This document shows positions 1 through 21,250 of a DNA stretch of 64,000 bases, piece by piece. The stretch lies in IMG/VR virus record IMGVR_UViG_3300028392_002123; one strand, 5' to 3'. A model generated the notes under the pieces. The model did not search any database, had not been told where the DNA came from, and worked only from the letters and a program-made list of their open reading frames with translations. The position numbers and the translations under genes were made by a program. Source of the stretch: a virus (taxonomy: Duplodnaviria; Caudoviricetes). Within the stretch, counting starts at the first letter, position 1. Each line of letters begins with the position of its first letter.

Positions 1-2460
1 TCTATGTAAGTCTGGACGGTTGGCACTCAACCAAGCTTTGGCATTAGCTAAATCATCAAATACTTTGCGTGTGACTCCACTGCTGTCAATGACATGATAG
101 CGAACTTCTGTGCTGTCGTCTATGCGCTTACGTGTAACACGTTTAATGCCAGGTTCACCTTCCCTAACTGAACGCATACCTTCATCCACGGCATCGACTG
201 CTTGCCCTAGAGCACTGACACTTTCTTTTTTAGCTGTTTTAGGAAACTGTGTTCTCAGTACCTGTTTTAAAATTGCCTGTGCTTGGGGATTGTTGGCCGG
301 CAACATTTCTCTATCTAAAGCATAATATGCCCATGTAGTATAGCTGTTACTTTCCACAGTATTAACACCTGCACTTATATCCACTGATATTAATCTTGCT
401 ATAGATTTTATTTGTGGAACCAAGGTCACAGTATAAAATTTGTCAACGGCTGTATCCTGTGCTTTTTTCTTTCTATCTTCATTTCTAAATTTAGCAACTA
501 ATTTTGTTTTTGCCAAGTTGCTGTTTGTTTCAATATTGCTTACTGTGTACTGTTTGCCAAACTGTTGTTTTACTATATCTTCAACTGTCTTGCTACGTGA
601 TACATTCCATATGTAGAATTTAAGCACAGGCAACCCTTTTGTTCTAATAAAATTGGCCGCTGTGCTAGCTGTTGTATCGGATGTAATTTCTGGTTTGTCA
701 CCGGCCAGTTTGACCAATTTGGTTTTATATTCATTGGCGTATAAATTAGGATCGCTGGCAATGATCATAGCACGAATAAAACGACCAGCAGTATTATATA
801 TGCCCGAAAAATCTGCTAGGTAATTGCCGCCGGCATGTCTGAAACTAATGTATTTGCCATTGTAACTGATACTGGCAGTATGTTGACGACTATAAGAAGC
901 CACAATACCCTGTAACATTTTTTCATCAACTGTGTTGGTCTGTCTGGGTTTGTCAAATACAGTGGATTGTTTTTTACCTACCTTAGTTTGTATTGCGTTG
1001 TCGTCACTGGTGGCCACTGCCGTGGATAAGTTTTTAGTCACGCTGTCCGCATATCTATTATTCTCACGACCAAAGTAACGTAGTACATACTGATCGCCTA
1101 GGAATACTGCCAACTTCAATACATCTAACTTTTGTGGTATACTGACGTTGATGTGCAGGCCTGTTGAATTATTAGTGTATAATTTAAGCTCTTGTGCTAT
1201 AGTATAAAACTTTTTAAGAGCGTCGATGGCAGTGGCCGCAGGCAATGGTGGGCTGACAATCTCAGCACTACTTTCTGTTTCTTCATCATTGGGAGATAAA
1301 CTTCCATCTGGTTCCACGTACCAATCAGTTAGGTTTTTATCTTCTTCGTGATAGTCATTGAATATGTTTACTTTTGCGCCCATGGCTGCTTGTACTGCTG
1401 TGGCTATTACCTTGGATGCTTTGCTGTAATTTTCATCTTCATCGTAGCTGTCCCAGTAATCGTCATCTTCTTCATCATAGTCATCCAATCTTAATAATTC
1501 CCATGCAGACTCGGGGTCAGTGTAAGTGAATAAATTATTAAAGTTTCTTTCTACTTGTGCTGGTGTTAATCCCAGTGCAAATCTAAAAAGTTGTGGCCAG
1601 CCAATGCGGCTTACCATTCTTAGTTCATTTCCAAGCATTTCTAATCTGCTGCCGCCTCTAGAATTAAAATACATTAAACGGCCTAGTCGATTAGCAAATG
1701 TTAGCTGTGTTTCAATACTTTTATTTGTGGGCATCGGGCCATGTTCTTGTTTATATTTTTTTAGGAATTTTTTTCTGTCTTCTTCGGGAATTTTATAATA
1801 TACTTCAAGCACAGAATCTAGAATACCTGAATTCATATATGCCTTAAATGCTTCCTGCATATTTTTATAACCCTTTGAAGTATCTTTTAATTTAAATACT
1901 GCATCAAAACTCACCGGCTGTAGATTATCAAAGTCTAGATTATCACTGCTGAACGGGCTGTGTTCATCCAAAGCGTCTGCAATTTTCTTAGGAGTCATTC
2001 CAGTATCTTCAGCGTCCTTTTCACTGCCACCCATGTTAACTGTTTCTGCAGGAATACATACTTCAAATTCAAAACCTACTAGCACACCCTTGTCCTGGCC
2101 TGTGCTGATAGCCTTGGCAAATTCTCCAGGATTCATAGGAGCTTCGTCTAGTTCTTCTTCTTTGGTCAATGACTTTAATTTGTTCTGCTTTAACCAACGC
2201 TCGTAGTCTGCTACACTTCTGAATTCTTTCTTCTTAACATTTTGCTTGTCATGTTGATCGAACCAAGATCTCATTTTACTAGTATCTGTTGGATCTTTGG
2301 CATTTTCATCGCCGGCAAAAAAGTCGCGCATGGTTGCCAAGCTGGCTTCTTCAACTGCTTGTCTTAGTGCAGATCTATGGTCATTGTTATTTTCTACAAC
2401 AGGTACCTGAACAGTATCTTCTTTTATTTCTTGCTTGTTTATAAAATTATTAAATCTCAT
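1..2460 (-). CDS. Putative amidoligase (COOH-NH2 ligase-like) mosaic protein, runs off the window start; not in the supplied ORF track
   Basis: Translated in part by hand: starts MRFNNFINKQEIKE at 2460 and contains VGFEFEVCIP, EIVSPP and YTNNSTGLHINVS in the same frame, matching the motifs of the neighbouring paralog. The last codons at the window edge (FDDLANAKAWLSANRPDLHR) are still in frame. Not every codon was checked for stops. Confidence 0.8.
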   Translation of the reverse strand, partial: MRFNNFINKQEIKEDTVQVPVVENNNDHRSALRQAVEEASLATMRDFFAGDENAKDPTDTSKMRSWFDQHDKQNVKKKEFRSVADYERWLKQNKLKSLTKEEELDEAPMNPGEFAKAISTGQDKGVLVGFEFEVCIPAETVNMGGSEKDAEDTGMTPKKIADALDEHSPFSSDNLDFDNLQPVSFDAVFKLKDTSKGYKNMQEAFKAYMNSGILDSVLEVYYKIPEEDRKKFLKKYKQEHGPMPTNKSIETQLTFANRLGRLMYFNSRGGSRLEMLGNELRMVSRIGWPQLFRFALGLTPAQVERNFNNLFTYTDPESAWELLRLDDYDEEDDDYWDSYDEDENYSKASKVIATAVQAAMGAKVNIFNDYHEEDKNLTDWYVEPDGSLSPNDEETESSAEIVSPPLPAATAIDALKKFYTIAQELKLYTNNSTGLHINVSIPQKLDVLKLAVFLGDQYVLRYFGRENNRYADSVTKNLSTAVATSDDNAIQTKVGKKQSTVFDKPRQTNTVDEKMLQGIVASYSRQHTASISYNGKYISFRHAGGNYLADFSGIYNTAGRFIRAMIIASDPNLYANEYKTKLVKLAGDKPEITSDTTASTAANFIRTKGLPVLKFYIWNVSRSKTVEDIVKQQFGKQYTVSNIETNSNLAKTKLVAKFRNEDRKKKAQDTAVDKFYTVTLVPQIKSIARLISVDISAGVNTVESNSYTTWAYYALDREMLPANNPQAQAILKQVLRTQFPKTAKKESVSALGQAVDAVDEGMRSVREGEPGIKRVTRKRIDDSTEVRYHVIDSSGVTRKVFDDLANAKAWLSANRPDLHR

Positions 2461-2470
2461 TGTTATTCCA

Positions 2471-4576
2471 TTATGCCATTACTGGATAAACTTCATAGTT
2501 ACCATCGAAGTTATTTTCTCTTGCCCATAGTGCGGCCAATCTGTTGGCATCAGCCTGACTATTACCCACACCACGGAATCTATATACTTCGCGTCCTAGA
2601 CCATCAACCACTCGCCACTGTCCTGTAAAGTTACCGGCCGGGGATGCATTATTATTGGTACTAATAGTTTGATCATTATTACCAACTGTGCCTGCGGGTT
2701 GTGGATTACTTGCAGGAGCTCCGGTTGGTTCAACTGCCTGGCCGCCAACATGCCTAATACCAAACATAGCAGTGGCCTGTCCGTGTTGCAGGAGATGTGG
2801 ACCCATTCTAATATAATCCTGTAAATGTTCTAATGCTGTTGCATCGTCACTGACAAATCCAGTCGGCACACGTTCTACACTATTACCAGTTAATTTATTA
2901 TAAATTTCATAGCGTGGCGTATTATCTGCTTGATCGTAGGGTCTAACTGGTTTTGCAGTAATGTTTGTAGCATTAGCCCAGTCTGGATATTCTGCTCGTC
3001 CTTTTTCGATAGCTTCTTCTTTGCTGGTAGCAACAACTTCAACACTGGCACCATAGCCAGGACGTCCCACACTCCACCAATATTTTGTACCTGTTGGACC
3101 TTTCTTTAGTTTACGCTGTAATTGTGCTTGTTTGACAAAACTACGTAGTGCGGCCTGTGGCATTTCACCAGCACTATACTTGGCAAAGTATTGAATTGTA
3201 TCTGTTGAATCGTTGCTGGGAGTTAATAATTTATAAAGTTTTTTAGCATATTCTTCTTTGTATTTTGTTTCATCACAGGCGGCATCCAAGGCCACAACAA
3301 AACGCAACAAGGTATTGGTAATATTTCCTTCGTCGGCAGCATACTCTCCCAGCCAATCTCCGCCAGGACTGCGGAATTCAATATATCCTGTTTTTGTGTT
3401 GATACTAGTATATTTGCTGGTAGCTCCACTGTGAATAACTTTGCCAGCCAAGGTCGCTAGACCCTGTTTCATTTTGTCCAGGATAATTGCTACATCATCA
3501 GGGCGTTGAACAATACGTTCTTTGACAATGTCCACAGCACTCTTACAGTATGTATTGCCCAGCCTGCCAAATTTTTCTAGAATGTATTTGTCACCCAACA
3601 ACAATGCTAGTTTCGTATAGTCTAGCTTTTCCATGCTAAAATCAGGAACACTGACGTTGATGTGTAGGCCAGTGCTGTCATTGGTATAACAACCTTTGTT
3701 ATTAGCCCAGTTAACAACTTTGTCCAAGTCCGACAACATTTCATCTAGGGGTAAAGGCGGGCTAACAAATTCCAGGCCGCCGTCACTGCTGTCGTCTGGA
3801 TCTAAACTGCTGTCTGGTTCTACTACATAGTGTCCTGCTTCTCTGCGGCCGCCGTGATATCTATCGCTGGCATTTACTGGACGTCCTATCTCTCGACTAA
3901 ATTCATCTGCTACATCATCAACACTGATACCAGATTCTTGACTATGATAATGCGGCCAATTAATATCATAGTTACTTTCAACATCGGACATATTTTCTAT
4001 GCCTTCGTGTTCCAACCAATCACTTTCTAAGTCAGCATTACTATAAAAATCATCACGGAAATCATCTTCGGCATCTTCGTACCATGGACTAATTTGATCT
4101 TCTATTACTTTGTCCGTGGCCTTGGCAAAATCTTCTTTTGTTGGTTCGGGATACTCGCCGTCTTCATTGTGTTCAAGTTCTAATATACCGGCAATATCTT
4201 CGGCATTGGCGTTTTCTTTTAACCATCGATAAATGACTTCGCTCATGTCCGAATCCCAACGATCGTGTACCTGTTCATCCAGCCATCCATGATAGTCTTC
4301 CTGCATCTTATCGCGAAGACGTTCTACGTCTCTGCGACCATTATAATCACCATCATAGAAAAAATCGTAGGCATCCTGAATACTGCGAATACCTTCGTCG
4401 CTGTCATAGTCTGGCTCAGGATATTCGTCGTTGTCTCCTTGACTGGCACCAGGAACAATCATTTCAAATTCCATGCCAGCACGAGCATCAATGGTAGCGG
4501 CTATTGTTTTTAAATTAGATGGACTCATGTTGATCTCATCCAAGCGTTGTTCGTTGATAACGTCTAATAATTTCAT
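2471..4576 (-). CDS. Putative amidoligase (COOH-NH2 ligase-like) with C-terminal extra modules
   Basis: GMEFEM, DGGLEFVSPP, TNDSTGLHINVS, KYTSIN and IEFRSPGG motifs. Start moved to MKLLDVINE (4576), which gives an ATGA overlap with the upstream stop. Confidence 0.8.
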   Translation of the reverse strand: MKLLDVINEQRLDEINMSPSNLKTIAATIDARAGMEFEMIVPGASQGDNDEYPEPDYDSDEGIRSIQDAYDFFYDGDYNGRRDVERLRDKMQEDYHGWLDEQVHDRWDSDMSEVIYRWLKENANAEDIAGILELEHNEDGEYPEPTKEDFAKATDKVIEDQISPWYEDAEDDFRDDFYSNADLESDWLEHEGIENMSDVESNYDINWPHYHSQESGISVDDVADEFSREIGRPVNASDRYHGGRREAGHYVVEPDSSLDPDDSSDGGLEFVSPPLPLDEMLSDLDKVVNWANNKGCYTNDSTGLHINVSVPDFSMEKLDYTKLALLLGDKYILEKFGRLGNTYCKSAVDIVKERIVQRPDDVAIILDKMKQGLATLAGKVIHSGATSKYTSINTKTGYIEFRSPGGDWLGEYAADEGNITNTLLRFVVALDAACDETKYKEEYAKKLYKLLTPSNDSTDTIQYFAKYSAGEMPQAALRSFVKQAQLQRKLKKGPTGTKYWWSVGRPGYGASVEVVATSKEEAIEKGRAEYPDWANATNITAKPVRPYDQADNTPRYEIYNKLTGNSVERVPTGFVSDDATALEHLQDYIRMGPHLLQHGQATAMFGIRHVGGQAVEPTGAPASNPQPAGTVGNNDQTISTNNNASPAGNFTGQWRVVDGLGREVYRFRGVGNSQADANRLAALWARENNFDGNYEVYPVMA

Positions 4577-7500
4577 TGCGGTTTCTTCCAAGCTTTTGCA
4601 GGAACATTCAGTGTCTTTTCTAAATGTTTAAGCGAAGCATTAATTAATGTATCTGAACTATCGCGTCCCGGTTGCCAGTACCAACGACCACTCTGTGTTT
4701 GTCTTAGTCCCATGGCTTTTAAATCAATGTGACTAAAACTGCCACCGCCACGACCTACATCAAAGAAGTATAGTGTATCAGCAGGATTGCCAGCACTTTC
4801 ATTTTTAGGTTTCTTATGATGCTTTTTCATGTTGATGGCTATAGCGGCCTGCTGTGCGGCATTACCTTCTTCTATGCTTTCATTGGGCACACAGTTATTA
4901 ACTCCGACACCGCCTTTGATCTTAGTGCCTTCTTTGTGCTTGCCTTTCCAGCACTTGGGATCTAATCTTTGTCGAACACTTTCGGCCATGCTGACATTAT
5001 TTTTTAGGTCTTTTGTAATTAACTGTAGTAATTCTTTGGCAGCACCATCGCCCCACTCTAGGCTTTTGATAATAGCGTGTGCGCCTTCCTTGCCTATTTG
5101 TTGAATAATATGCTGTAGTAATTCTCGAGTAACATGTGGTACACCTTTGGCATCACCTTCTGCCTCCGCCACACCCTCGCCTTCGTCTAAGTCCCACACG
5201 GTCCTCAATCCAGATCCGCCGTGATCGCTGAGTAATTCATCAATCATTTCGCTGACATGACTGTCTAATTTATGTTGTGCCGCTAGTCCGGCACGCTCAC
5301 CTTTGGTTACATAGATGCTGGCAACTTTCTTTGCGTTAGCAAAATCTTCGGGTTCATAGCCCAACTCATCGTTTTCAGCTTCATACTCGGGTATGTATTT
5401 TAATATCATTCGACCAATGGTTGGACCAGCATCTGATTCTGCAGTTTTGCCTTGAGCAATATTAGTAATTTGATTTATATCGTCAATTTGATTTGTATTA
5501 CCATTTGCGCCCATGCCTTGCCATACATTGATTTGGTATGCTGGTAGGCCAGTGGCCTGAAGACCGCGATTCATATCGGAAAAATATTTGTTGATGGCTG
5601 ACACGGTTTTAACTATCATAGCAGCCAGTTGCTTTTGATTGTGAGTAGTAAATTCTTTATTGGTATCGAAATACACCTCTGTATAGCCTTGCCCTTGGCC
5701 AGGCTCAACCAAATCCCATCCGTATTTTTGACCAATGACTGTTAATTGTTGTTCAATTCGATCAGGAGTAAATTTTAGGTCTTTTATCAACTGACCTGGA
5801 TCATCGGTGGTAGCAGGCAAGGCTCGGCCATTTACTGTAGCGCCACGAATCCGTTTAGATGGTTGCTCACTGGCATAACTGACTGCAACATATCCACTAA
5901 CAGGATCAGGAGTGTTCTTTTGAATAGCACCCATCATTTTTTGGAATTTTGGATCATCGGTTGCGGCTTCCGCCACACCTTGCTGACCAATTTGTACTAA
6001 CCATTCTAATTCATCGTCAGCATCTTTGACATCAAAGAATTTAACATTAGGAATCTTCTTGGCAGCAAACCATTTGTTGGCTACTTTAACCATAAGGGCA
6101 CGATGTTGTGGATCACGAACATCCGGCTCGTAGCCCCCTGTTAAGTTTGCCCATAACGCACTTGGATTACCATTGCGGTCATAACCTAATAGTTCACGCC
6201 ATTGTTGTTGTAATTGTTGTGGTACATACTGATCTAACTCTGTGTCACTCATCCACTCTTGACCAATGTCAACACCTTCCGCCACATTTTTTTTACCATA
6301 CCGTTGTAGTAAATCTTTACCTGTACTTAATTCAAATGCATCTTTTACATAAGGTCCTAAACGTTCAATAGCACGTTGTTCTATCTTAGGTAAATTTATT
6401 TTAGCATCTTGTATGTTATCATATTCCCCGTATAACACTACTGCACCATCCCAAGCCCATACATAATATTTGCTTGGATCAACATTATACTTACCGCCAT
6501 TAATAGTCTCGATGCCTTCCGCCACACCTTGCTTATAACTTGGTTGTGTAAGTTTAACCGGCGGCGCTTGAACTGCGGCTACTAATAATTTATTTCCAGC
6601 GGCAATAGCATTTTTTAATGCCTCATCTCTACTTGTGGCCACTTGACCAGCATCTTTGAACATAGCAGGATTGCGAACATTTACTGTGGGATTGGGCAAT
6701 GGTTTGTTGTTTATAAAATATTCTTTATTGTTGGCATTTTGTAATATCCACTTGTTTACCTCATACCTATCTTTTAAGAATTGTAGTTTGCCCTCTCCGT
6801 CTTTGCCATCAGTGGGGTCGAGTCCTGACTGAGTCAATTGCTGTAAAAATTTTCCTTGATTTTGTGGATAAGCATCCATATGTTGCACTAACAACCAAGC
6901 CGCATAAGGTGCCGCAGGATATGACCCTTTACCGTCCGCACCTTTGTCAGATAGTATTGTGTTTATATTTTGTTGTATATATGGCCAAACTTTAGCTTGG
7001 AAACCGGCTCGACGAGTAGGATCTTTAAATTGCTGATCTTGATTCATCCAGGCATTAAGTTGTTGTCGAATTTGGTTTGTATTTTGTTCCAAGCCTTCCG
7101 CCACACCTTCTGTTAGATCTTCTGCAGACCATGACTGATAGCTACGGCCATGCTCATCACCACTACGTATCACAAACACGCCGCCGTTGTCGTAGCCGCC
7201 TTCGTCTTCGCCGATTTCCCAGCCAGTGCGAGCCAGTATTTCTTCTATTTTTAACTGTGTGGCTTCGTCACCGTTCCACCACATACGAGCATACTTGTGT
7301 AAGATGTCATCTTCACCGTCACCGCCGCCATTGCCGGGCGCAAATTCATTTAATGAACTTTCACTGACAGGTGCTAGATATTGATCAAATACTTGTTTAA
7401 TTCTTTTTGGATCTGCGGCCCGGGGATAAAGCTGTTTAATAATGCCTAGTCTGCCAGCATCATCTGCTTCGGCATACATTGCACGTACTTGACTGCCGCT

Positions 7501-7959
7501 GTATACTTCTTCACCATTGACATCAAACACATGTTTCTTAGTAACAAACACATAACCGTGCTTGCTCAATGGTTCACATTCTGCAACACTATGAAATGGT
7601 TGATAGTAACCAGGCGTGCCATCTTTTTTGGTATAGGGCATAGGGTCGCGTTCACTGCGAACTATTACTAGAATATCTCTTTCGGGATTGAATTGTTCTG
7701 TGATTTCTCGTGGATTAATTGGCTGACGTACCTGTACAAAAGGATCTACCACGCCTGCTTGCTGTGCTAAAAATTGTTTGGCTTCAAAGGGAATAGGACG
7801 AGTCTTTGTATCATTGCTGGCCGCTACAAAGAACTTGGCATGTGGGAACTCTTGTTTGGCTTGAATATAACTGCTCATGTGTCCTTGATGAAAGGGCTGG
7901 AAACCACCGCCATATACTACGATTACCTGTGGTTGATCTTTTAATTCTAATAAACGCAT
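4573..7959 (-). CDS. Mosaic polyprotein: N-terminal HIGH-motif cytidyltransferase-like domain plus at least 7 unrelated modules joined by VAE-type linkers
   Basis: GGGFQPFHQGH (HIGH motif) at the N-terminus. AAWLLVQHMD resembles DUF6624 (from memory). A CWKGK...NCVP module lies near the C-terminus. GVAEG/NVAEG/GVAEA linkers recur. Confidence 0.75.
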   Translation of the reverse strand: MRLLELKDQPQVIVVYGGGFQPFHQGHMSSYIQAKQEFPHAKFFVAASNDTKTRPIPFEAKQFLAQQAGVVDPFVQVRQPINPREITEQFNPERDILVIVRSERDPMPYTKKDGTPGYYQPFHSVAECEPLSKHGYVFVTKKHVFDVNGEEVYSGSQVRAMYAEADDAGRLGIIKQLYPRAADPKRIKQVFDQYLAPVSESSLNEFAPGNGGGDGEDDILHKYARMWWNGDEATQLKIEEILARTGWEIGEDEGGYDNGGVFVIRSGDEHGRSYQSWSAEDLTEGVAEGLEQNTNQIRQQLNAWMNQDQQFKDPTRRAGFQAKVWPYIQQNINTILSDKGADGKGSYPAAPYAAWLLVQHMDAYPQNQGKFLQQLTQSGLDPTDGKDGEGKLQFLKDRYEVNKWILQNANNKEYFINNKPLPNPTVNVRNPAMFKDAGQVATSRDEALKNAIAAGNKLLVAAVQAPPVKLTQPSYKQGVAEGIETINGGKYNVDPSKYYVWAWDGAVVLYGEYDNIQDAKINLPKIEQRAIERLGPYVKDAFELSTGKDLLQRYGKKNVAEGVDIGQEWMSDTELDQYVPQQLQQQWRELLGYDRNGNPSALWANLTGGYEPDVRDPQHRALMVKVANKWFAAKKIPNVKFFDVKDADDELEWLVQIGQQGVAEAATDDPKFQKMMGAIQKNTPDPVSGYVAVSYASEQPSKRIRGATVNGRALPATTDDPGQLIKDLKFTPDRIEQQLTVIGQKYGWDLVEPGQGQGYTEVYFDTNKEFTTHNQKQLAAMIVKTVSAINKYFSDMNRGLQATGLPAYQINVWQGMGANGNTNQIDDINQITNIAQGKTAESDAGPTIGRMILKYIPEYEAENDELGYEPEDFANAKKVASIYVTKGERAGLAAQHKLDSHVSEMIDELLSDHGGSGLRTVWDLDEGEGVAEAEGDAKGVPHVTRELLQHIIQQIGKEGAHAIIKSLEWGDGAAKELLQLITKDLKNNVSMAESVRQRLDPKCWKGKHKEGTKIKGGVGVNNCVPNESIEEGNAAQQAAIAINMKKHHKKPKNESAGNPADTLYFFDVGRGGGSFSHIDLKAMGLRQTQSGRWYWQPGRDSSDTLINASLKHLEKTLNVPAKAWKKPQ
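5165..7105 (-). repeat. Five dispersed in-frame copies of TGTGGCGGA (plus-strand TCCGCCACA), extended consensus (A)AGGTGTGGCGGA(A/G)G, encoding (G)VAE(G/A)
   Basis: Copies at 5165-5173, 5969-5977, 6278-6286, 6518-6526 and 7097-7105. Spacings of 804, 309, 240 and 579 nt are all multiples of 3. Confidence 0.9.
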
Positions 7960-9233
7960 TATCTTACCTTTGCAAAATTCTCACGGCTAAAGTCAAGTCT
8001 GTCAACTATCTTAACTGCTTCGGTGCCACCTTTGCCCAAGTGGTCAACAATGACAACACCTTCTTCGGGCTTGACATCATAGCTACCATCTGGACGAGCA
8101 ATGAATGTATTTACTTGTCTAATTTTAGCATAGTGTTGCTGTAGTTTGTTCTTGACATTCTGTATACCCAAGAACAAGAAGTAAACATTTTCAATGGCTT
8201 CTTCGTGACTGCGAATAAATGCCAGTGCGCTTTCAGCGGCTTCACGCTTGCGATCCTGTCCTGTCTGTGTTTTTAATTTAGCAATGTCTGCCTGTAATTT
8301 TTCATCAAAGCGATTGATAAAGTTGGCTACATAGCCGCCGGCATTGTCCATCTGTCCTGCACGTACCATTTTATTAACGTCGATTTTAATAGCGTCACGC
8401 ACAGCATGACCAGCAATGGTAGCATCCAACCATTTAAATGTGTCTGTGCCAATGCCCTTTAAGAAGTTACGTAGTTCAGTGATAGCATAGCGTAGATCAT
8501 AGGTTTCATCTCTGGTCAATGTGACACTACCGCTGACATCTTTAATGCCGGCATCTCTATACCATATAAAAGGACTGGTGCCCAAGCCGCTGACGTCGGC
8601 GCCAAAATGTGCTGTCATATCCTGTACAGTAGGACCGCCTGTATAAGTTGTATGGAACACAATGCCCACTTTACAACGACTCATTTTGTCTGCCAATGGA
8701 CCTGCAGGCACAGCATAGGTCAACAGGTTTGGAGTAAATGTAAAGTATGTTTGTCCATCAATGTCCTGGAAGCCGCTGGTACCATCACCTTCGGTCCATA
8801 ATAAATCACCTTGAAGAATTTTATCTCCATAGTTTAAGTCTTTGAGATAGTTAAAAGCCAATTTTAATTTGTCACGTAATGGACCATAGTTAACAACTTC
8901 TCCATTGCGTTCTTTGTTGGGCTTTAAACGATCAACGTCTGAGGGCTTGTATATTCTGCCATCTTTGGTACTGGCAAATATACCTTTGTCGCCCATGACA
9001 AAATAACCTGTTTCTGGATCTGTGCCCAAGAATAATGCAGGACTGCCATCCCATTTTTTAGTGGCAAAATAACGTTGCTCGGTTGTGCCAGCTAATAAGT
9101 TTGTTGCACCTTCGATGTAGTCAATGGCTTCAATGGCACCTTGGTGGCCACGATTCCATATTTCGTCGTCTAAGTGTTCTAAATGGGTGTTTTTCCCATC
9201 TACTGCTTCGGTGATAATTTGATTTATTTTCAT
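7959..9233 (-). CDS. DUF6267-like protein with KxDG nucleotidyltransferase (ligase-like) motif
   Basis: KNTHLEHLDD, TKKWDGSPA, LQGDLLW, FTPNLLTYAVP and EEGVV...KIVDRLDFS motifs recalled from a T4-like cyanophage family that usually sits next to a cytidyltransferase, as here. Confidence 0.7.
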   Translation of the reverse strand: MKINQIITEAVDGKNTHLEHLDDEIWNRGHQGAIEAIDYIEGATNLLAGTTEQRYFATKKWDGSPALFLGTDPETGYFVMGDKGIFASTKDGRIYKPSDVDRLKPNKERNGEVVNYGPLRDKLKLAFNYLKDLNYGDKILQGDLLWTEGDGTSGFQDIDGQTYFTFTPNLLTYAVPAGPLADKMSRCKVGIVFHTTYTGGPTVQDMTAHFGADVSGLGTSPFIWYRDAGIKDVSGSVTLTRDETYDLRYAITELRNFLKGIGTDTFKWLDATIAGHAVRDAIKIDVNKMVRAGQMDNAGGYVANFINRFDEKLQADIAKLKTQTGQDRKREAAESALAFIRSHEEAIENVYFLFLGIQNVKNKLQQHYAKIRQVNTFIARPDGSYDVKPEEGVVIVDHLGKGGTEAVKIVDRLDFSRENFAKVR

Positions 9234-9250
9234 GGGTTTAATTGGAAATA

Positions 9251-9793
9251 TTAAGTATATTTACCTGAATTAAACCAATTAATAAATTTTGCTTCGCCGG
9301 CTTTAAGAGCATCTTCCCAAACAGTACCGGAGTCACCGTCGGCATTGTCGCTGATCCATTTCATGCTGATCCATTTAGTGTTTAGCCTGTCACAGACTTT
9401 GGCAATGGCCCATAGTTCCATGTCCACTATATCGCAGTGGTCTTTAGTCCAATTGTCAGGATCCGTGACAAAGTTATTGCCACTGCCACAGCGTATGCCA
9501 GTTTGGCCGCTGTTGTAATAAAGTATATTTTCGCCCAGCATAAAACCACGTTGACGCAGAGGTTCACAGTTGGCATCACGTTGACATACACTAGCCACAC
9601 TGAGCAGGCCTTGAATGTTTTTAAGTGCGCCCGCGCTACCATAGTTAATGACTAAATCAGGTTGATGTTGAGTTATGGCTTCGTAGGCCATCATTGCGGC
9701 ATTGGATAAACCTACACCTGTGTAGACCACAGGTGCATCAATTAAATCACGGTTTAATTCTTCGGGGAGTGCTACTAGTACTAATGTTTTCAT
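9251..9793 (-). CDS. Nucleoside phosphorylase / MTA-SAH nucleosidase family protein
   Basis: TGVGLSNAA, INYGSAGAL, VDMELWAIAKVC and KWISDNAD motifs. Confidence 0.8.
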   Translation of the reverse strand: MKTLVLVALPEELNRDLIDAPVVYTGVGLSNAAMMAYEAITQHQPDLVINYGSAGALKNIQGLLSVASVCQRDANCEPLRQRGFMLGENILYYNSGQTGIRCGSGNNFVTDPDNWTKDHCDIVDMELWAIAKVCDRLNTKWISMKWISDNADGDSGTVWEDALKAGEAKFINWFNSGKYT

Positions 9794-9911
9794 ATCAGTA
9801 TATATACTGAACAGTCAAATTTATTATTAGTAGCGATTAATGTCTTCGACAATAAAAATTAAAGTATTTAGAAACTCTAATTTTAATTCTTCTAATCTAG
9901 TCTTAGCAACA

Positions 9912-11120: not shown

Positions 11121-11148
11121 AGTAGATCCAAAATAAATGCTCACTAAG

Positions 11149-11240: not shown

Positions 11241-11241
11241 G

Positions 11242-11907: not shown

Positions 11908-11908
11908 T

Positions 11909-12889: not shown

Positions 12890-13179
12890 TTTGTGTCCTT
12901 GACTGTGTCTAAATATTCAGCACGACTAATTGTAGTGCCATCTTCTAATATTACTTCACGACCCCACTGGAACATATTCCATATACGATCATGAATATAA
13001 TACATTAATGCGTTAATTGTAAATTGACAGATAAAAATAATGCTGGCAGTTTCAGCGGCGCTGGCACCGGCTCGTGCTACAAAATAAACAATGGCGGCTG
13101 TTGTGCTACCGCCAATAATTCTCCAGCTTATTAATCTTACTATGCTACGACTGCGCCAATCATTGAATTTCTTTTTCAT
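12886..13179 (-). CDS. DUF2061-like small membrane protein
   Basis: RSIVRLISWRIIG and LMYYIHDRIWN motifs with hydrophobic segments. Confidence 0.7.
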   Translation of the reverse strand: MKKKFNDWRSRSIVRLISWRIIGGSTTAAIVYFVARAGASAAETASIIFICQFTINALMYYIHDRIWNMFQWGREVILEDGTTISRAEYLDTVKDTK

Positions 13180-13180
13180 T

Positions 13181-13732: not shown

Positions 13733-13733
13733 T

Positions 13734-14429: not shown

Positions 14430-14519
14430 CGCTGACTCCTTAATTAAGATATGCTGTCATATATAATAGTATATATCTGTGCAATCATATTTATTTATCA
14501 GATCTGTGAAAAAAATCCT

Positions 14520-15272
14520 ATGAATACAAAAATTTTTAACTTAATTAAAGAAAATTTACAAATCGCCTTTAATTTACCTAAATATCAGAAAATTTCTGAT
14601 GCCATCGACGAAAATACAGTAGTGGACCAACTGCCTTGGACACCGGCTCGCTATCGCAAATTCAAGGATACCATAGAAGCAGAACTTAGTTTGCCCTGCG
14701 ACTACGTGGGTACCTTGGGCAGTATTGTTGATGATCTCAGTGAACGTTATATCAGTAGATTCTTTGCTGAGATATGGCAACCACGCACTGGAGACTATGA
14801 TTACACAGGATGGGAGTTAGTAGATGAAATTAATAGACAAAATCCTGGCAGCGTTTTGGACGTTGGCTGCGGGTATCACCCATTTAAGGGTAGGATTAGC
14901 AATTTGGTGGGCATCGATCCTTACAATTCCTGTGCTGACTACATGGTGGATATTCTTGACTATAAAGTTAAACCTGCTAGTCACGACATAATTATTGCTT
15001 TGGGCAGTATTAATTTTAACAGTAAAGAAGACATTGAAGCAAGATTTAGTTGCTGTGTGGATTTATTAAAGCCCTTGGGTAAAATATATTTCCGTGCCAA
15101 TCCAGGAATTCCACATAAGACAGGTCCCTATGTGGATATATTTCCCTGGAGTTTTGAAATAGTCAATGAATTTGCTGAAAAATATAATTTAACATTACTT
15201 GAATTTAAAAAAGATAAAAATGATAGATTATATTTTGTTTATCAAAAAATAGAAAAAGAATTAATTTTTTAA
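14520..15272 (+). CDS. Class I SAM-dependent methyltransferase
   Basis: VLDVGCG motif I and IIIALGSINF. Start taken at MNTKIF (14520). Confidence 0.75.
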   Translation: MNTKIFNLIKENLQIAFNLPKYQKISDAIDENTVVDQLPWTPARYRKFKDTIEAELSLPCDYVGTLGSIVDDLSERYISRFFAEIWQPRTGDYDYTGWELVDEINRQNPGSVLDVGCGYHPFKGRISNLVGIDPYNSCADYMVDILDYKVKPASHDIIIALGSINFNSKEDIEARFSCCVDLLKPLGKIYFRANPGIPHKTGPYVDIFPWSFEIVNEFAEKYNLTLLEFKKDKNDRLYFVYQKIEKELIF

Positions 15273-15836
15273 TTTACTAATTCTTTTTTTAATAATTTTA
15301 ATCACAGAATCAGCTTGTAACACTTCATAATGATTGTAGTCTATTTCTACTAATTCCATGTCCACGTGATGTCGCTGACTGGCTATGGTAACAACACCAT
15401 CGTTGGCTTCTGCGATAAAAGGACTTTGCCCTTTAACTGTTACAACATTACACCAAGGGTGCTGAATCTTAATTCTGTCGGCCTGCTTCATAGCCCACGA
15501 ACTAGGGCCTATATCACGCATAAGTCTACTAAAAGGTAAGAAGAATTTGGCAACTTCCGCAACTTCGGCGCCTCCGTAGGGTGTGCTTAGTGTAACAGCC
15601 CCTAGAACTTGATCTGGCATGGCATTGGCCAAGTGTAGCGAATATATGCCGCCTAGACTGTGTGCCACAAATACCATGTCCCGAACATCTTTTAGTTGTT
15701 CCAGCATGTCCTTTAAGTTATTTTCAAAGCCGTTGCGACTATCGTAGTTAATGTCTATGCCCGCACCCAGTTTGCTTCTAATATAGTTAAAGCTTTCGCT
15801 GGTCGCGCTGGCGCCGTGAATATATACTAATTGCAT
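15261..15836 (-). CDS. Alpha/beta hydrolase (lipase/esterase-like)
   Basis: YIHGASA, AHSLGG nucleophile elbow, STPYGG, NDGVV and NHYE motifs. Confidence 0.8.
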   Translation of the reverse strand: MQLVYIHGASATSESFNYIRSKLGAGIDINYDSRNGFENNLKDMLEQLKDVRDMVFVAHSLGGIYSLHLANAMPDQVLGAVTLSTPYGGAEVAEVAKFFLPFSRLMRDIGPSSWAMKQADRIKIQHPWCNVVTVKGQSPFIAEANDGVVTIASQRHHVDMELVEIDYNHYEVLQADSVIKIIKKRISKLKN

Positions 15837-16035
15837 TTAATACCGTCCTGACGCAAGTACAATCTTGCAGATATGTTCCAATCTTTCTATGTGTTCATAG
15901 GCACGCCATGGACTTGTATCAATGGCAACTACACCATGTCCTTTGATGCCCACAATGTCATAGGAAAAAGTCGCGAAGGCCGACACCTTTAAATTCTATT
16001 TCAGAACCCTTGACGTGTGAAAATTTTGTAGTCAT
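15837..16035 (-). pseudogene. Chimeric relic: 25-codon N-terminal fragment joined out of frame to the C-terminus of a class II aldolase/adducin-like gene
   Basis: AAGGAG RBS, then MTTKFSHVKGSEIEFKGVGLRDFFL* (16035-15958). A shifted frame with no start gives YDIVGIKGHGVVAIDTSPWRAYEHIERLEHICKIVLASGRY* (15962-15837). Confidence 0.6.
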
Positions 16036-16051
16036 TGACAAAACTCCTTGA

Positions 16052-16897
16052 TTAATCGTTACTGGCACCGGCGCCGCACTTAGCACGTTTGGCATTGGTT
16101 AATGCGCCAAAATCTACTGGCCATTCTTGACCTGGTTGTAGTTCTCGAGCGTTGGCAGGGAAAGCATACTTAACACCGGCAGTCTGCATAATCTGTGCCA
16201 CAGGCATGCGGAATTTAGTTAAATCATTGCCCAAGTTAGGATATGGAGCTGTGTGTGGGAATGCCCAACCTGCAATTTCATTGGTTTGATTATTGATAAC
16301 AATTTTGTAGAATCCGTGCGGTACAACTACGCCATTGCCAATCTTTTTATCAGTAGCATCATAGACACCGCCTACATAAACTGTGTAGCTTTGATTGCGT
16401 TGTACTGCCCATCCACGTACACTTGTTTCCAATAGTTTCCAAATGCCACGATTTAGGCTACCAGCCTGCGGGCTCATATTAGTCATTAAAAAGCTTTCAA
16501 ACTCTACTTGAACGTCCCATGACAAATCGCCATCTGGACTCATGTGCCCTTTATCATAGCCAGTACCTGCGTAATCGTCGGGACGGGCTCCTCCTGGAAC
16601 TGATTGATCAGCAACAAAAGCATTAGTGCGAGCGACACAGCCGAGAGCGTTTTGAGGTAGTAGTTCATAGGTTACATATTTAGGTAATTTGGCAGCGGCA
16701 TCGTAGCCTACCAAGTATGCTTGACGACAAATAGGCTGTACGCCTGCTGTCTGTGGAAAACCGTAGGGTGCATGTACCTTGCAGGTCTGTGGATCCTGTG
16801 GCGGCCTTTGTGTCCACGCAACAGCATTGCCAAATCCCACCGTTACTAGTAGGATTAAAATTAGTTGTTTCATTGATTTCATTTTGTTTACTTCCAT
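16052..16897 (-). CDS. Secreted DNA/RNA non-specific endonuclease (NucA/EndA-like)
   Basis: Signal peptide, YDKGHMSP (DRGH-like), FLMTNMSPQ and LNRGIWKLLE motifs. The true start is probably one of the downstream Met codons. Confidence 0.85.
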   Translation of the reverse strand: MEVNKMKSMKQLILILLVTVGFGNAVAWTQRPPQDPQTCKVHAPYGFPQTAGVQPICRQAYLVGYDAAAKLPKYVTYELLPQNALGCVARTNAFVADQSVPGGARPDDYAGTGYDKGHMSPDGDLSWDVQVEFESFLMTNMSPQAGSLNRGIWKLLETSVRGWAVQRNQSYTVYVGGVYDATDKKIGNGVVVPHGFYKIVINNQTNEIAGWAFPHTAPYPNLGNDLTKFRMPVAQIMQTAGVKYAFPANARELQPGQEWPVDFGALTNAKRAKCGAGASND

Positions 16898-17523
16898 ATG
16901 ACCATTTTAAACCTTTCCTTAGGTATGCCAAAATAATCGCATTTCCAATCGGACTGTGCGAAGAATTCCAAGCTGTGCCATTTATCTTTATATTTAATCA
17001 GATTCTTCGCGGCATCCTGCCAATCTATGTTTAATAACACAGGTTCTATTTTATTTTTAATGGCTGTAATTTCTTCATAGCTGAAACTGTCCCATTCCCA
17101 GTGTAGTATTTCAAATGCATTACCCGCGCGATCCACATAGTCCATGCTGAAATCTAGACCCCATTTAGAACGTATATTAATTATTTTATGAATTAAAGGC
17201 AGTGATTCTGCCCAATACTTTAATTCAGCCAAGGCTGGCCCTGTGTAACCCTTGCGTTCAAATAATAAACTGTGATTTAATACAGCGCCTTCTATTACGT
17301 TGTACTGTGTAAACCAGTCTTGTTTAACAGCACGAATATGATCCCTGTGTAATCTAGGCTTGACATAATTACTGTAAGCATAGTGCTGTTCTAGCACAGT
17401 TAAATCGTAGCCATTTTGATCAAATAGATCTAAGTCTTCTTTAGTGGGAATGTACACTAATTTTTTAATTGGTTTATCCCAGAAAGCCTGGGGATTAAAT
17501 TCATTATTTGTTACGGATAACAT
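16888..17523 (-). CDS. Hypothetical protein
   Basis: 211-aa ORF in the operon, no recognised motif. Confidence 0.6.
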   Translation of the reverse strand: MLSVTNNEFNPQAFWDKPIKKLVYIPTKEDLDLFDQNGYDLTVLEQHYAYSNYVKPRLHRDHIRAVKQDWFTQYNVIEGAVLNHSLLFERKGYTGPALAELKYWAESLPLIHKIINIRSKWGLDFSMDYVDRAGNAFEILHWEWDSFSYEEITAIKNKIEPVLLNIDWQDAAKNLIKYKDKWHSLEFFAQSDWKCDYFGIPKERFKMVIWK

Positions 17524-17529
17524 TTAATT

Positions 17530-18873
17530 TTATTTATTTTTACCGCGGCGCATGTTCATTTGCCAACGTGCCAGCTGTCCTTTACGACCCGATGCATGAC
17601 TGGCCTTTTCCAGTTCGGCCATGGTGGCATGTTTGGGTATGCCATGACGAACGCTGTCTCCGGGGCGACCCGGGCCTTTGCCATCCGCAAAGTTTTCCTC
17701 TACACCCGGTTTTTTAACAGGACTCCAGTGGAACACAGTCATGCCCATACTGGGATATTCTTCCGGTTGCCACTTTGCACCCAGTATGTTCTGTATCACA
17801 GGAACAAAATACCGACGATATAAGCTGGCACGGTTATCACCTTTGGCAGTAAATGATACGCCAGGTGGACGAGCTTTGGCCATGTATTCAGGCAACTGTC
17901 GTTTAACAATATCAAGAACTGTGCTCAATATTTTCACTGTTGATCGGCTGGCACTTGTGGCCTGGCTTGGTGTGTCGTAATTGCCATTCACAGCAAATGT
18001 GATGTGCAAGGTGTCATTGAATTCACTGCGATCAAAGAACACATCTACCCAGTGGCCATCCACAGTGGCATGAAACAGACTGCGCTTTCGCTTGCGATTG
18101 GGCTTGTATTCAGCAGGTGCATTGCCCAGCTCAGTGATGGGCTCAACAGCAATCCAAGCCATGATATCGGTCTTGTTCAACAACTCGGCCGCGGCCCATG
18201 CTCTATGATTACCGTCTAAGATATAATTATTAGAATCTAAGACAATAGGATGTTTATCTATATAATGTAAACTGTGTTCTCCGGCATGTTCTGGATCAAT
18301 ATACATAACACGATTATAAGGATCATCGGTTTCACTGCCTTGTTCTTCATCATTGTATTCTTGATCGGGTATATGTATATCGGCCAGTGGCACACGTTTT
18401 AATTCATATTCTGGATATTTCATTATCAAGTTTTTTAAAAACCCACCACCCTGTTGGTCCTTGGGATGTATTTTACTTACATAACTCCATACTTGTTCAG
18501 CTGAAGCAATCTTAGTAGATATAGATGTTTCCCACACGCGAACATCTTCGCCTTTGTGCTTGTTCCAGAATCCTGCGCCTGCATCAGTTTGATCCCAGCT
18601 ACGCTGTATTTTGTAACCTTGGCTTTTAACAAAGTCATACATTATTTTAGCAATTCCTTGATTACGGAATTTTTCTTTGACAAATAAATCTTGGGGATCT
18701 AATTCCCGACCGTCGCCGATGTTAAATGTAACATGCCCTAGTTCGTTGCCCCAAGTTGAATCAAGTGCATTTACAAACAGTTGGCCATTGTCCTTGACCA
18801 TTCTGAATTGCAGGCCTTCAAAATCTTGTAGTTTACCCTGCTCACGTTCAACTATAAATTCATGTGCTCTCAT
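17530..18873 (-). CDS. Mosaic protein: GNAT acetyltransferase, ParB/Srx-like domain, unknown module and short basic tail
   Basis: FRNQGIAKIMY..AGAGFW (GNAT) and IVLDSNNYILDGNHR (ParB-like) motifs. Linkers VWE, ITE and VEE. N-terminus MRAHEFIVE. Confidence 0.7.
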   Translation of the reverse strand: MRAHEFIVEREQGKLQDFEGLQFRMVKDNGQLFVNALDSTWGNELGHVTFNIGDGRELDPQDLFVKEKFRNQGIAKIMYDFVKSQGYKIQRSWDQTDAGAGFWNKHKGEDVRVWETSISTKIASAEQVWSYVSKIHPKDQQGGGFLKNLIMKYPEYELKRVPLADIHIPDQEYNDEEQGSETDDPYNRVMYIDPEHAGEHSLHYIDKHPIVLDSNNYILDGNHRAWAAAELLNKTDIMAWIAVEPITELGNAPAEYKPNRKRKRSLFHATVDGHWVDVFFDRSEFNDTLHITFAVNGNYDTPSQATSASRSTVKILSTVLDIVKRQLPEYMAKARPPGVSFTAKGDNRASLYRRYFVPVIQNILGAKWQPEEYPSMGMTVFHWSPVKKPGVEENFADGKGPGRPGDSVRHGIPKHATMAELEKASHASGRKGQLARWQMNMRRGKNK

Positions 18874-20798
18874 CTGCTGGCCACCTTAATAGGTTCTCCT
18901 GGCTTGACATGCATGGCGGCCTGCCAATCTCGTGCTTTTTGTTCACGATTTTTTTGTCCTTTTAAGCCAGGATTAATATTCTTTGTAACTTGTTTTGTAT
19001 TGTTAAAACTCTTAGTTCTAGGTCTAACAAACTGTATCCAATACCATATACTGCTCAGCGCGGCCGCTGTGGGTGTGGCCACTATTTCAGGTTTGGCAAC
19101 AAAATCCACAGGATGATTAATAAATTTAGAAATCCACTCTCCGGCTTTTTGATAATTATATTTTCCAGTTAACTGCAAATATCCTCGGCCATGATATTTT
19201 GCGCCATCGCCGGGTTTGTCGTTGCCCAATATTTTGGCCTTGGCTGGATTAAATCTTATATCATATTTCTTTGCAAATTGTTCAGGAGTGCCATATTCAT
19301 TCATGGTGTTAAAGTTATCACTTTCATGAGCACACTGAGCCATAAATGCCGCTAACTCTGCGGGATTTTTAATAAATTGTTTGGCCCATTTTAATAAAAA
19401 ATCTACCTTGGGATTATTAGCCACGGACTGTGGTTTAGTATCTGTTTTTGCCTGTGCGCCCAAGGCGCTTACTGTGGCGCCTCCGGCCATGCCTTTAAGG
19501 AATCCTCTGCGATCAATGTCTTCCCCTACATCTTGTTTTATTCTTACTAGGTCAAATCCAATATGGTCACCGGTATCATGTACATTTTTTAATTGATATC
19601 CCCAGGATGTAGCATAACGTTGAAGTAACTTTGAATATAAACTAATTCTACTGTCTTTTCCTTGTTCTTCGCCTTTGGCGCCGGTAAATGATATAAATCT
19701 CGGCTGTTCTTTTGTCGTTAGAAATTCTTGTATGGCACTTAATACTGTGGCAAAGATTCTCTGTGAATCACCGTCGCCAGTTGCATCTTGACTATTGTTT
19801 CTCCAAAATTCAACGGTGTACACATCATCATCTTCTTTATTGAACATGATACTTAAATTAGAACCGTCTGGTAATTTAGTATACGCATCGTGGTCACCAA
19901 ACTCCCCGTGTTCCCATTGAAGCGGATAGGGCTGATTAAAGGCTTCCTCCAGACTTTCAGGAGTCCAGGCCATGTTTTTACTGCCCTTGACTGTGGGTTT
20001 GAATCCCTGTCCCTTATAGAATTTTGTCAGTTTGGCCTGGCTTACCTGTCCTTTGTCCCAGGGATATAGTGTAAGACTTATATTATCTTCTCGGGCCAGC
20101 CGCTGTAGTTCCGCCATGGCGCGAGTACCCACTCCTTGACGCAGAGGATATGCTTGAAACCATTTGACTTCCACAGCATCTTTTTTGCTCATGCTGGGCA
20201 CTAGATCAAACATGGCAAACTGTTGTTGTTCACCTTCGCCCCATACCATAATATGATTATTTTGAAATGTATGCGGATACAAGTCATAGACCTTTTTAAT
20301 CCAGTCTTTGGCACGTTGAGGTACTGTTAGTTTTATAGTGTCTTCGGCTACATCATGATTCAGCGAATTTGCCAACTGAGATATAGGAACTCCCGCGGCC
20401 TTGTAACCACGTGCTATACGAGCAATATAAGTTTTACGAGGTCTAGTGCCTTCTAAGTGTTCTCTAGTCGCCGGAGTCATAGTGTACAATTCTGCTACAA
20501 CTTTATTGCCGTCAACGTATACTGGCACAGTTTTTCTATCATATAAATGAGGATAACCTTCTGTACGATCTAGTTCGGCCAACATATTTCTGTCCAAGGC
20601 CCATAGTACTCCTACAACTTCTTGACCTGCTTCGGGACGCACATTAGCATATTGAAACATTTCATATTCAAAGTTTTTAAGCACAGCGGTGCCTACAAAA
20701 TCAGCACCACGCATTATCTTAGGATCTGTTAGCATGCCATATGCAAAATAGTATATGGGTACTGCACCTGCTTCTATTAGAAAATCACTGGCTTTCAT
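18870..20798 (-). CDS. Mosaic protein: gamma-glutamylcyclotransferase-like, GNAT, unknown module, and Tat-signal GH19 muramidase/chitinase-like domain
   Basis: YFAYGML..LDRTEGYP (GGCT), PLRQGVGTRAM..KFYKGQGF (GNAT), AAFMAQCAHES..YHGRGYLQLTGKYNY (GH19). Linkers VAE, LEE and VGE. Start MKASDFLIE with ATGA overlap. Confidence 0.75.
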   Translation of the reverse strand: MKASDFLIEAGAVPIYYFAYGMLTDPKIMRGADFVGTAVLKNFEYEMFQYANVRPEAGQEVVGVLWALDRNMLAELDRTEGYPHLYDRKTVPVYVDGNKVVAELYTMTPATREHLEGTRPRKTYIARIARGYKAAGVPISQLANSLNHDVAEDTIKLTVPQRAKDWIKKVYDLYPHTFQNNHIMVWGEGEQQQFAMFDLVPSMSKKDAVEVKWFQAYPLRQGVGTRAMAELQRLAREDNISLTLYPWDKGQVSQAKLTKFYKGQGFKPTVKGSKNMAWTPESLEEAFNQPYPLQWEHGEFGDHDAYTKLPDGSNLSIMFNKEDDDVYTVEFWRNNSQDATGDGDSQRIFATVLSAIQEFLTTKEQPRFISFTGAKGEEQGKDSRISLYSKLLQRYATSWGYQLKNVHDTGDHIGFDLVRIKQDVGEDIDRRGFLKGMAGGATVSALGAQAKTDTKPQSVANNPKVDFLLKWAKQFIKNPAELAAFMAQCAHESDNFNTMNEYGTPEQFAKKYDIRFNPAKAKILGNDKPGDGAKYHGRGYLQLTGKYNYQKAGEWISKFINHPVDFVAKPEIVATPTAAALSSIWYWIQFVRPRTKSFNNTKQVTKNINPGLKGQKNREQKARDWQAAMHVKPGEPIKVASR

Positions 20799-21250
20799 TT
20801 TCCATAGCCCCAATGCTTTTTGCCATTTTTACGGTGCTTTTTAGATTTCTTAATTATTTGATCTGGTTCACCAAAGTCTACTTTAATCACACGACCAGTC
20901 TTGGGATTCTTTGTATAGACTTTAATTTTTTCTTTTTTCTCAATGACAGTTTCTTCACCCATGTGTTTAAAATACTGTACTTCTCGTTCACGCTTTTCAG
21001 CACCAGCATGAGTAGGATACTTACCCAAATTTTTACCAGTTTTTTTGCTTTTTAATTCCCAGCCACCTTTGACTTTGACAATATGTTCTAGCAGAGTCAT
21101 GTCATTTCCCGGAGATTCGACTATGTATGTTGCTATATGAGTTGTTTTATTGATGCCAACAATAACTGTTTCGACAATAGTGCCGTTTATGTTAAATTCT
21201 AAAATATCGCCAATTTCTGGCTGGCCAGTATCAACTTCGTTTAATCGCAT
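20795..21250 (-). CDS. Small basic mosaic protein, possible head-internal protein
   Basis: Starts MRLNE at 21250, downstream of the terminator/TAAATA element. Lys-rich modules follow LLE and GEE. Confidence 0.55.
   Translation of the reverse strand: MRLNEVDTGQPEIGDILEFNINGTIVETVIVGINKTTHIATYIVESPGNDMTLLEHIVKVKGGWELKSKKTGKNLGKYPTHAGAEKREREVQYFKHMGEETVIEKKEKIKVYTKNPKTGRVIKVDFGEPDQIIKKSKKHRKNGKKHWGYGK

Follow-up and report, generated by a model that had tools for sequence, protein, structure and literature searches.

T4-like leader peptides and a codon-conserved joint in mosaic enzyme proteins of an uncultured jumbo phage: probable head-internal cargo

A stretch of 64,000 nucleotides from a virus of the class Caudoviricetes (IMG/VR record IMGVR_UViG_3300028392_002123; hereafter, at its full length, the window) raises the question of why seven genes lying in two clusters, here called A to G, begin with short peptides that end in an aliphatic residue, any residue and Glu, and why similar tripeptides stand between the unrelated enzyme modules of the proteins that they encode. 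A preliminary description of the sequence had proposed that these proteins are packaged polyproteins, cut during head maturation into separate effectors. Comparison with related loci lends support to several elements of this proposal, namely a leader resembling the capsid-targeting sequence (CTS) of phage T4 on unrelated enzymes, junctions with an aliphatic P3, a Glu at P1 and a free P2, modules that are either fused or stand-alone, and a gp21-type protease encoded together with a T4-like head module in relatives; packaging, cleavage and injection themselves stay at the level of prediction. Accordingly worded, the explanation that we favour, and consider probable, is that the proteins are head-internal cargo of a jumbo phage of the T4 superfamily, in which CTS-like targeting is combined with prohead-protease cutting of mosaic effectors.

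Under this explanation, the leader of 5-14 residues would act like the T4 CTS and bring the protein into the assembling prohead core, where a gp21-type prohead protease would cut after the leader Glu. The same protease would also cut exposed [VLI]-x-E sites between modules, above all x-Q-G-V-A-E|G/A (the bar marking the predicted cut). The modules so released (NTase, amidoligase, GNAT, GGCT, GH19 lysozyme, RNA-ligase-like DUF6267 and many unknowns) would be ejected along with the DNA and would, we infer, serve early host-directed functions.

Leaders at the N termini of unrelated genes

The seven gene starts read in the preliminary description proved exact throughout, and the JGI gene calls of the same contig use identical ATGs. 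All seven genes lie on the minus strand. In the first cluster, gene A (1-2460; 821 amino acids, its 3' end lying just outside the window start) opens with MRFNNFINKQEIKE (2419-2460), gene B (2471-4576; 701 amino acids) with MKLLDVINE (4550-4576), gene C (4573-7959; 1128 amino acids) with MRLLE (7945-7959) and gene D (7959-9233; 424 amino acids, DUF6267) with MKINQIITE (9207-9233). In the second cluster, gene E (17530-18873; 447 amino acids) starts with MRAHEFIVE (18847-18873), gene F (18870-20798; 642 amino acids) with MKASDFLIE (20772-20798) and gene G (20795-21250; 151 amino acids) with the short form MRLNE (21236-21250).

Our comparison set consisted of eleven related IMG/VR loci; G001, of 367 kb, is the one complete relative. 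These loci contain consecutive, mutually unrelated genes starting with MKANEFITE, MKAHEFVVE, MRASEFITE and MRATEFITE, the same runs further including MRANEFLIE, MKSSEFITE and MRSTEFIRE. The leader family follows the consensus M-[KR]-[AS]-x-E-F-[ILV]-x-E, includes short forms like MRLxE and spans 5-14 residues. As judged by its residues, this consensus is nearly the same word as the leader of the T4 internal proteins IPII and IPIII: the T4 peptide MKTYQEFIAE, invoked for comparison in the preliminary description, was confirmed in NC_000866 as the N terminus of both, and IPI begins there with MKTFKEF...ITE.

Taken together, the window, G001 and the loci L001-L010 contain 26 distinct leader genes, and since their upstream DNA is unrelated and the synonymous codons of their leaders vary, the leader is conserved as a peptide and not as a DNA cassette. 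In G001, 7 of 424 open reading frames (ORFs) start with MRA[STN]EF[IL]xE or MKINEIINE. The looser pattern M[KR]..[LIV]xE within 16 residues is present in 7/7 genes of our set and in 3/67 other ORFs of the window, a comparison that is circular, the set having been picked by its leaders. Leaders are carried by 22 of the 53 ORFs with GVAE, the joint word described below, versus 50 of the 572 without it, and by nine of ten cargo-type GH19 homologues but not by the GH19 of lysis-cassette type, which provides an internal control. For DUF6267 (gene D), homologues in many T4-like phages have leaders that vary in length and typically end in [LIV]-x-E immediately ahead of the conserved core KNTHLEH, and residues 1-16 of gene D are disordered in its AlphaFold model.

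Two further kinds of N terminus were observed. Relatives (L001-L004, L009 and P0129-P0176) have another class of leader, M-x-[IL]-x-[DEN]-[LF]-F-[ENT] (MIITNLFES, MILNEFFES, MNIHELFEA, MFALDLFNT), which is located on the proteins richest in joints. Moreover, the acidic prohead-core proteins in the head modules of G001 and G003 (L015 and L017) start in a leader-like manner (KFEKLIDLIINE, KFEQLIE), and the N terminus of T4 gp67 is MEGLIE; such starts of prohead-core proteins hint at a common core-assembly signal.

Junctions between modules

The most telling result is that internal [LIV]-x-E junctions align with N-terminal leaders that relatives carry on stand-alone genes. In C, the junction S-L-N-E205|FAPG (7345-7356, minus strand) aligns with the N-terminal MRLRE|FAPA of such genes. 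In E, whose junctions are VWE115 (18529-18537), ITE248 (18130-18138) and VEE393 (17695-17703), the first (VWE|TSISTKIAS) aligns with the N-terminal MKAHEFVVE|SVKTAS and the second (AVEPITE|LGNAP) with the N-terminal MRAEEFLIE|LGNAP of a relative. In F, the order of modules is GGCT, VAE152 (20343-20351), GNAT-like, LEE285 (19944-19952), DUF6934-like, VGE426 (19521-19529), a Tat-like (twin-arginine) signal (19449-19520) and GH19 (about 18924-19367), and here PESLEE|AFNQPY aligns with MRASEFITE|AFDQPY. The reverse is also encountered, the leader of E (MRAHEFIVE|R) aligning with the internal WEPISE|R of a 2017-amino-acid protein in a relative. The same modules thus occur in relatives either fused or as stand-alone, leader-bearing genes.

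LDE106 in A (2143-2151) and LDE14 in B (4535-4543) each precede a Pfam-supported amidoligase module. The domain labels of the preliminary description held in part: Pfam supports the amidoligases of A and B, a cytidylyltransferase-like NTase in C and the GGCT and GH19 modules of F, GNAT in E and F was obtained below Pfam cut-offs only, and the segment labelled ParB-like had no Pfam match. Pfam searches of the split modules added no families.

At its C terminus, E carries a basic module of 55 residues (residues 394-447; 17530-17694, minus strand) starting NFADGKGPGRPGDS. This NFADG module ends many unrelated cargo proteins, with 85-91% identity in the closest relatives, and is preceded by VEE, VAE, LNE or VWE. 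P3 and P1 are thus kept while P2 is free, as expected for a site of a T4-type protease.

A more specific word recurs in C, which consists of the NTase module (residues 1 to about 200) and about seven more. This protein has five copies of [GN]-V-A-E-[GA], with their Glu at residues 288 (7096-7107; GGT GTG GCG GAA), 481 (6517-6528; GGT GTG GCG GAA), 561 (6277-6288; N-V-A-E, AAT GTG GCG GAA), 664 (5968-5979) and 932 (5164-5175), all on the minus strand, the last two (both G-V-A-E) in linkers of low predicted local distance difference test score (pLDDT). The form x-[EKQ]-Q-G-V-A-E-[GA] is repeated in large proteins of related loci. When C was used to search for homologues, 255 proteins were obtained, every one of which covers at most 35% of C, and in which its modules are recombined, the NTase with Zeta-kinase-like, sigma region 4 or RelA/SpoT-HD modules, in mosaics that also contain GGCT, LysM, amidoligase and GNAT. 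In the best 120 of these 255 mosaic homologues, GVAE was observed 169 times versus 2.6 expected and QGVAE 117 times versus 0.15 expected, a ratio of roughly 780, with up to 10 copies per protein at spacings of 43-440 residues.

The ends of the BLAST high-scoring segment pairs (HSPs) on C gather at each of the five sites, 45% of the 240 internal HSP ends lying no more than 6 residues from a site Glu (random-site p = 0.0005). A global MAFFT alignment of the mosaic pieces on full-length C was scrambled, because the repeated joints attract one another, and was discarded; an AlphaFold model of C residues 470-1040 was therefore built on a collinear alignment. Here pLDDT falls to minima of 24-35 at sites 561, 664 and 932, next to a folded domain. 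Residues 684-924 (5188-5910, minus strand) form a confident alpha/beta domain that matches no Pfam family; the same residues make up the most widely shared module, present in 34 homologues. A Foldseek search of the model against the PDB gave no match below E = 1e-3, with weak glutamine-synthetase-like rows only.

The generic motif did not behave as the preliminary description had anticipated. The density of [LIV]xE is 1.41% in these proteins versus 1.39% in other ORFs, so that it is not enriched overall. The sites stand out by where they lie and by the particular word GVAE, not by generic [LIV]xE. This density could be taken to favour chance resemblance or a start-codon artefact with no shared signal, and a loose [LIV]xE within 15 residues is indeed common by chance, as the three other ORFs of the window mentioned above illustrate. 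An origin of this kind is, however, hardly credible in view of 26 near-identical leaders on unrelated proteins, an excess of QGVAE of several hundred-fold and gene calls that match the starts, and we consider it already refuted by the shared leaders, the joint excess, the clustering of HSP ends and the fixed joint codons described in the next section.

Codon usage at the QGVAE joint

At the level of DNA, the joint reads CAA GGT GTG GCG GAR GGC. In the window and the first relatives, Gly is GGT in 22/22 joints, Val is GTG in 17/22 and Ala is GCG in 17/22, compared with genome usages of 0.40, 0.17 and 0.07, respectively, and two more distant contigs display the same pattern. Among 96 further joints from 80 IMG/VR loci, the corresponding counts are 92, 76 and 75 (usage 0.43, 0.18 and 0.11), and Gln is CAA in 38/38. 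The codon pair GTG-GCG encodes Val-Ala in 31 of 43 VAE words within GVAE versus 6 of 62 outside this context, and the VAE sites of the G001 scaffold have ordinary codons. Of 212 copies of the 9-mer GGTGTGGCG, 196 read G-V-A; in 192 of these the next residue is Glu, and the third base of this Glu codon varies at background rate. More than 120 IMG/VR stretches contain the exact 17-mer CAAGGTGTGGCGGAAGG, frequently in several copies; its matches in bacterial genomes are single and scattered, many of them in high-GC taxa, roughly as expected by chance according to our own estimate.

The joint is therefore part of the coding sequence, is locked to its frame and is kept fixed even at synonymous positions. 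This conservation at the nucleotide level was missed in the preliminary description, and it suggests a role at the DNA level (module shuffling) or another constraint. As a protease site does not need fixed codons, it is not a sufficient explanation on its own. Most plausibly, the fixed codons would reflect the use of joints as places of in-frame module recombination, in which case the existing joints would be mostly young copies of one word, or uniform through exchange. A constraint at the level of translation, for example rare-codon pausing, may be another cause. An internal translation start at the GTG of the joint was rejected, the only Shine-Dalgarno-like bases (AAGGT) abutting the GTG and the following residues not being start contexts; a frame-independent DNA site was likewise rejected, the word being locked to frame and strand.

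These observations bring up an alternative to the cargo explanation, in which the joints would be in-frame recombination joints at the DNA level, or flexible linkers made uniform by exchange, and nothing else, the proteins, whether packaged or not, acting uncut as multi-domain polyvalent proteins and the leader being a mere family tag. Fixed GGT GTG GCG codons that are rare in these genomes, the wide distribution of the 17-mer, the position of module borders at joints and the frame- and strand-locking of the word, which in-frame shuffling needs, are all in keeping with it, and delivery without processing is known for some polyvalent proteins (PMC5512222). We nevertheless regard this alternative as unlikely. 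It does not account for the Glu being retained after the word while its third base drifts, nor for [VL]-x-E|NFADG junctions that keep P3 and P1 only, with codons and P2 differing. Furthermore, internal junctions are homologous to N-terminal leaders, leader DNA is conserved no further than the protein requires, and the Tat-like signal at residue 427 of F is sensible only after cleavage.

A combination of the two is also conceivable, and we put it forward tentatively, as possible but doubtful: QGVAE|G might be dual-purpose, being both a cut site of the prohead protease and a frame-locked recombination joint of 12-18 nucleotides. If so, any two cargo genes could recombine in frame and, since the protease separates the modules later, each shuffle would still give working parts. 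Such a joint would amount to a built-in combinatorial kit of injected effectors in uncultured jumbo phages.

Head module, fate of the cargo and known systems

Cutting within the head presupposes a suitable protease, and relatives of the window encode one. Peptidase_S77 was detected above cut-off in G001, G002, G003, G006 and G008, and in G001-G003 the gene order is portal, core, protease, scaffold and major capsid protein (MCP), as in T4. The Peptidase_S77 of the relatives aligns with T4 gp21 and keeps the conserved His and Ser blocks, whose His and Ser we take to be catalytic. The MCP of G001 is of gp23 type, and those of G001-G003 have L-x-E|S/N where T4 gp23 has LTE|A, presumably the T4 cleavage position; the scaffold of the relatives has 20-26 [LIV]xE sites. 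We also considered as a counter-example G007 (343 kb, 99% complete), which has leaders and joints and neither S77 nor gp23, and rejected it, as the contig ends inside a pre-portal gene and its head module has simply been cut off from the assembly.

The window itself belongs to a 340-kb contig from a JGI lake metagenome (3300010157, Ga0114964_10000001). PHROG and Pfam scans of the window point to a large tailed phage, with tail fibres, a ClpA-like ATPase and a clamp loader that shares 53% identity with its counterpart in the Pseudomonas jumbo phage PA5oct. A near-identity DNA search against a phage collection found no close DNA relative of the window among deposited phages. Likewise, tblastn searches of C, B and E against this collection gave weak or partial matches (an uncultured phage record for C; RsoM2USA and Atu_ph07 for B) or none, and no isolate with close homologues. 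Every long ORF at positions 1-22000 is on the minus strand, and tail-fibre genes, likewise on this strand, are located upstream of the second cluster, the clusters being otherwise flanked by metabolic-type genes. The block of cargo genes goes on just past the window start (L037, 19243-21275), with a 252-amino-acid gene that has SLVAE|G at about residues 36-40 and a 437-amino-acid gene with the N terminus MRLLE.

Two TAAATA boxes, one at 21274-21279 (minus strand; 29 nucleotides upstream of gene G, in a terminator-like hairpin) and one at 9258-9263 (30 nucleotides upstream of gene D), are possible T4-type late promoters and the sole hint of late expression; the T4 late promoter consensus TATAAATA is not enriched. 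The ATG of gene G comes directly after this GC-stem and T-run terminator hairpin (21250-21315, minus strand), whose loop holds CTAAATAATACT, and no Shine-Dalgarno sequence is visible for this gene.

The C-terminal part of F raises a question about where the products act. A Tat-type signal (RRGFLK, h-region, AQA; residues 424-450, 19449-19529, minus strand) directly follows the VGE426 junction, ahead of GH19, and in L138 and L156 a stand-alone gene consists of a leader, a Tat-like signal and GH19 (MRATEFVTE-MDRRGFLRG and MRASEIIAE-DLTRRGFLG). These proteins could be explained by cytoplasmic processing by another Glu-directed protease, in which case they would not be head cargo, the leader would be a pro-peptide or regulatory tag and the products would have a late role; a GH19 exported through Tat could, for instance, be an accessory lysin. 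The signal right after the leader or cleavage site in F and in the two stand-alone GH19 genes, the location of the clusters among metabolic-type genes and the fact that packaging is a prediction would suit such processing. It is however quite improbable in our judgement, since Pfam found no peptidase or protease domain in A-G or in their split modules, the leader closely resembles the T4 CTS, and P1 Glu with an aliphatic P3 is the signature of the gp21-type protease that relatives encode; T4 gp21 acts inside proheads (PMC5694885).

A second GH19-type lysozyme of the window, at 60964-62097 (plus strand), carries no leader; it was identified by similarity to a GH19-matching ORF in L148. Two small hydrophobic ORFs come after it, and this region is probably the true lysis cassette.

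For gene D, K-W-D-G (K60-G63) is invariant in 27 DUF6267 homologues, and the AlphaFold model (mean pLDDT 81) has long structural matches to RNA ligases only (1xdn, 5cot, 2hvq, 1s68 and 6n0t), with middling scores (Z 6.5-7.6 over 179-205 aligned residues). As modelled, DUF6267 looks like an RNA ligase of Rnl2/REL1 type, and an enzyme of this kind, tagged with a leader, could mend host or phage RNA that has been cleaved as the phage enters.

Several points weigh against the head-cargo explanation and temper our confidence in it. Packaging and cleavage are predicted from sequence comparison, and support for the protease comes from relatives. Neither cluster is part of the head module, both being located among the metabolic-type genes noted above, generic [LIV]xE is not enriched overall, and a protease site alone does not predict the fixed synonymous positions of the joint. 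In addition, the Tat-type signal after VGE426 fits poorly with simple injection into the cytoplasm, and the known CTS cargo of T4 comprises small inhibitors plus Alt, not multi-enzyme chains.

Work by Mullaney and Black (1996) and Repoila et al. (1994) reportedly dealt with the T4 internal proteins (IPI, IPII, IPIII and Alt), their capsid-targeting sequence and gp21. The CTS and processing by gp21 are described in PMC3012670, PMC5694885 and PMC12373910, and many ip genes were found through their leader (PMC12373910). The proteins studied here share with T4 internal proteins a short leader on otherwise unrelated proteins, its aliphatic-x-Glu end and a nearly identical EF[IL]xE, variable and clustered cargo genes, and a lineage with a gp21-type protease and a gp22/gp23-type head. 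They differ in that the cargo consists of large enzymes, in chains of up to about 8-15 modules, whereas that of T4 is made up of small inhibitors, and in that internal joints of fixed consensus (QGVAE|G), which are also codon-fixed, would release several products. The phages concerned are jumbo phages of about 340 kb from freshwater, uncultured and only distantly related to Tevenvirinae.

Packaged effectors made up of several domains have already been proposed in print, under the name of polyvalent proteins, described from phages and conjugative elements (Iyer, Burroughs, Anand, de Souza and Aravind 2017; PMC5512222). These are mosaics of 2-15 unrelated effector-type domains (lysozyme, GNAT, NTase-type and others) subject to rampant shuffling, for which packaging in the virion and delivery together with the DNA are predicted. 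That work invokes built-in zincin-like (MPTase) peptidase domains, frequent though not universal, for processing, whereas Pfam found none in A-G; a text search of it gave no 'amidoligase' and one 'prohead'. For the proteins studied here we predict instead that a protease acting in trans cuts at conserved joints and that a T4-type leader provides the targeting.

In phiKZ, 201phi2-1 and SPN3US, inner-body and ejection proteins are cut by proteases of gp175/gp245 type (PMC5694885, PMC7411985, PMC10052503). There, too, a gp21-related protease cuts numerous proteins of the head interior after Glu, sometimes at several sites, and propeptides are considered to target proteins to the prohead. The reported motifs, however, are AXE (SPN3US) and SXE (phiKZ), as opposed to V, L or I at P3 here, the propeptides often exceed 100 residues, compared with leaders of 5-14, and phiKZ-like phages are not known to have a codon-fixed joint or such enzyme mosaics; the MCP of our relatives is of gp23 type.

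A DNA-level parallel is offered by PeSLs, mobile regulatory cassettes that reportedly mediate the modular shuffling of genes in T4-type genomes (PMC2839356), short conserved DNA words at module borders being proposed to drive it through recombination. PeSLs are said to be intergenic promoter/stem-loop cassettes between genes. The joint resembles them as a short conserved word at module borders, but it lies inside ORFs, is frame-locked and encodes a likely protease site. A full-text literature search for QGVAEG found no phage paper. What is new, then, as we read the evidence, would be that targeting and processing of T4 type act on enzyme mosaics whose joint is fixed and codon-locked.

If the explanation is correct, the T4 CTS mechanism would be extended from small inhibitors to enzyme polyproteins. 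Polyprotein strategies are familiar from RNA viruses; to our knowledge, one based on enzymes has not been described for tailed phages. The codon-fixed joint would provide a testable case of sequence-guided in-frame domain shuffling, and in practical terms the leader could be a packaging tag for engineered phages beyond the T-even group. The T4-like leader and the QGVAE|G joint would be two short rules for reading, from metagenomes, the injected arsenal of uncultured jumbo phages of the T4 superfamily, an arsenal of hundreds of mosaic proteins with NTase, amidoligase, GNAT, GGCT, lysozyme and RNA-ligase-like as well as Zeta-kinase-like, RelA/SpoT-like and sigma-region-4 modules.

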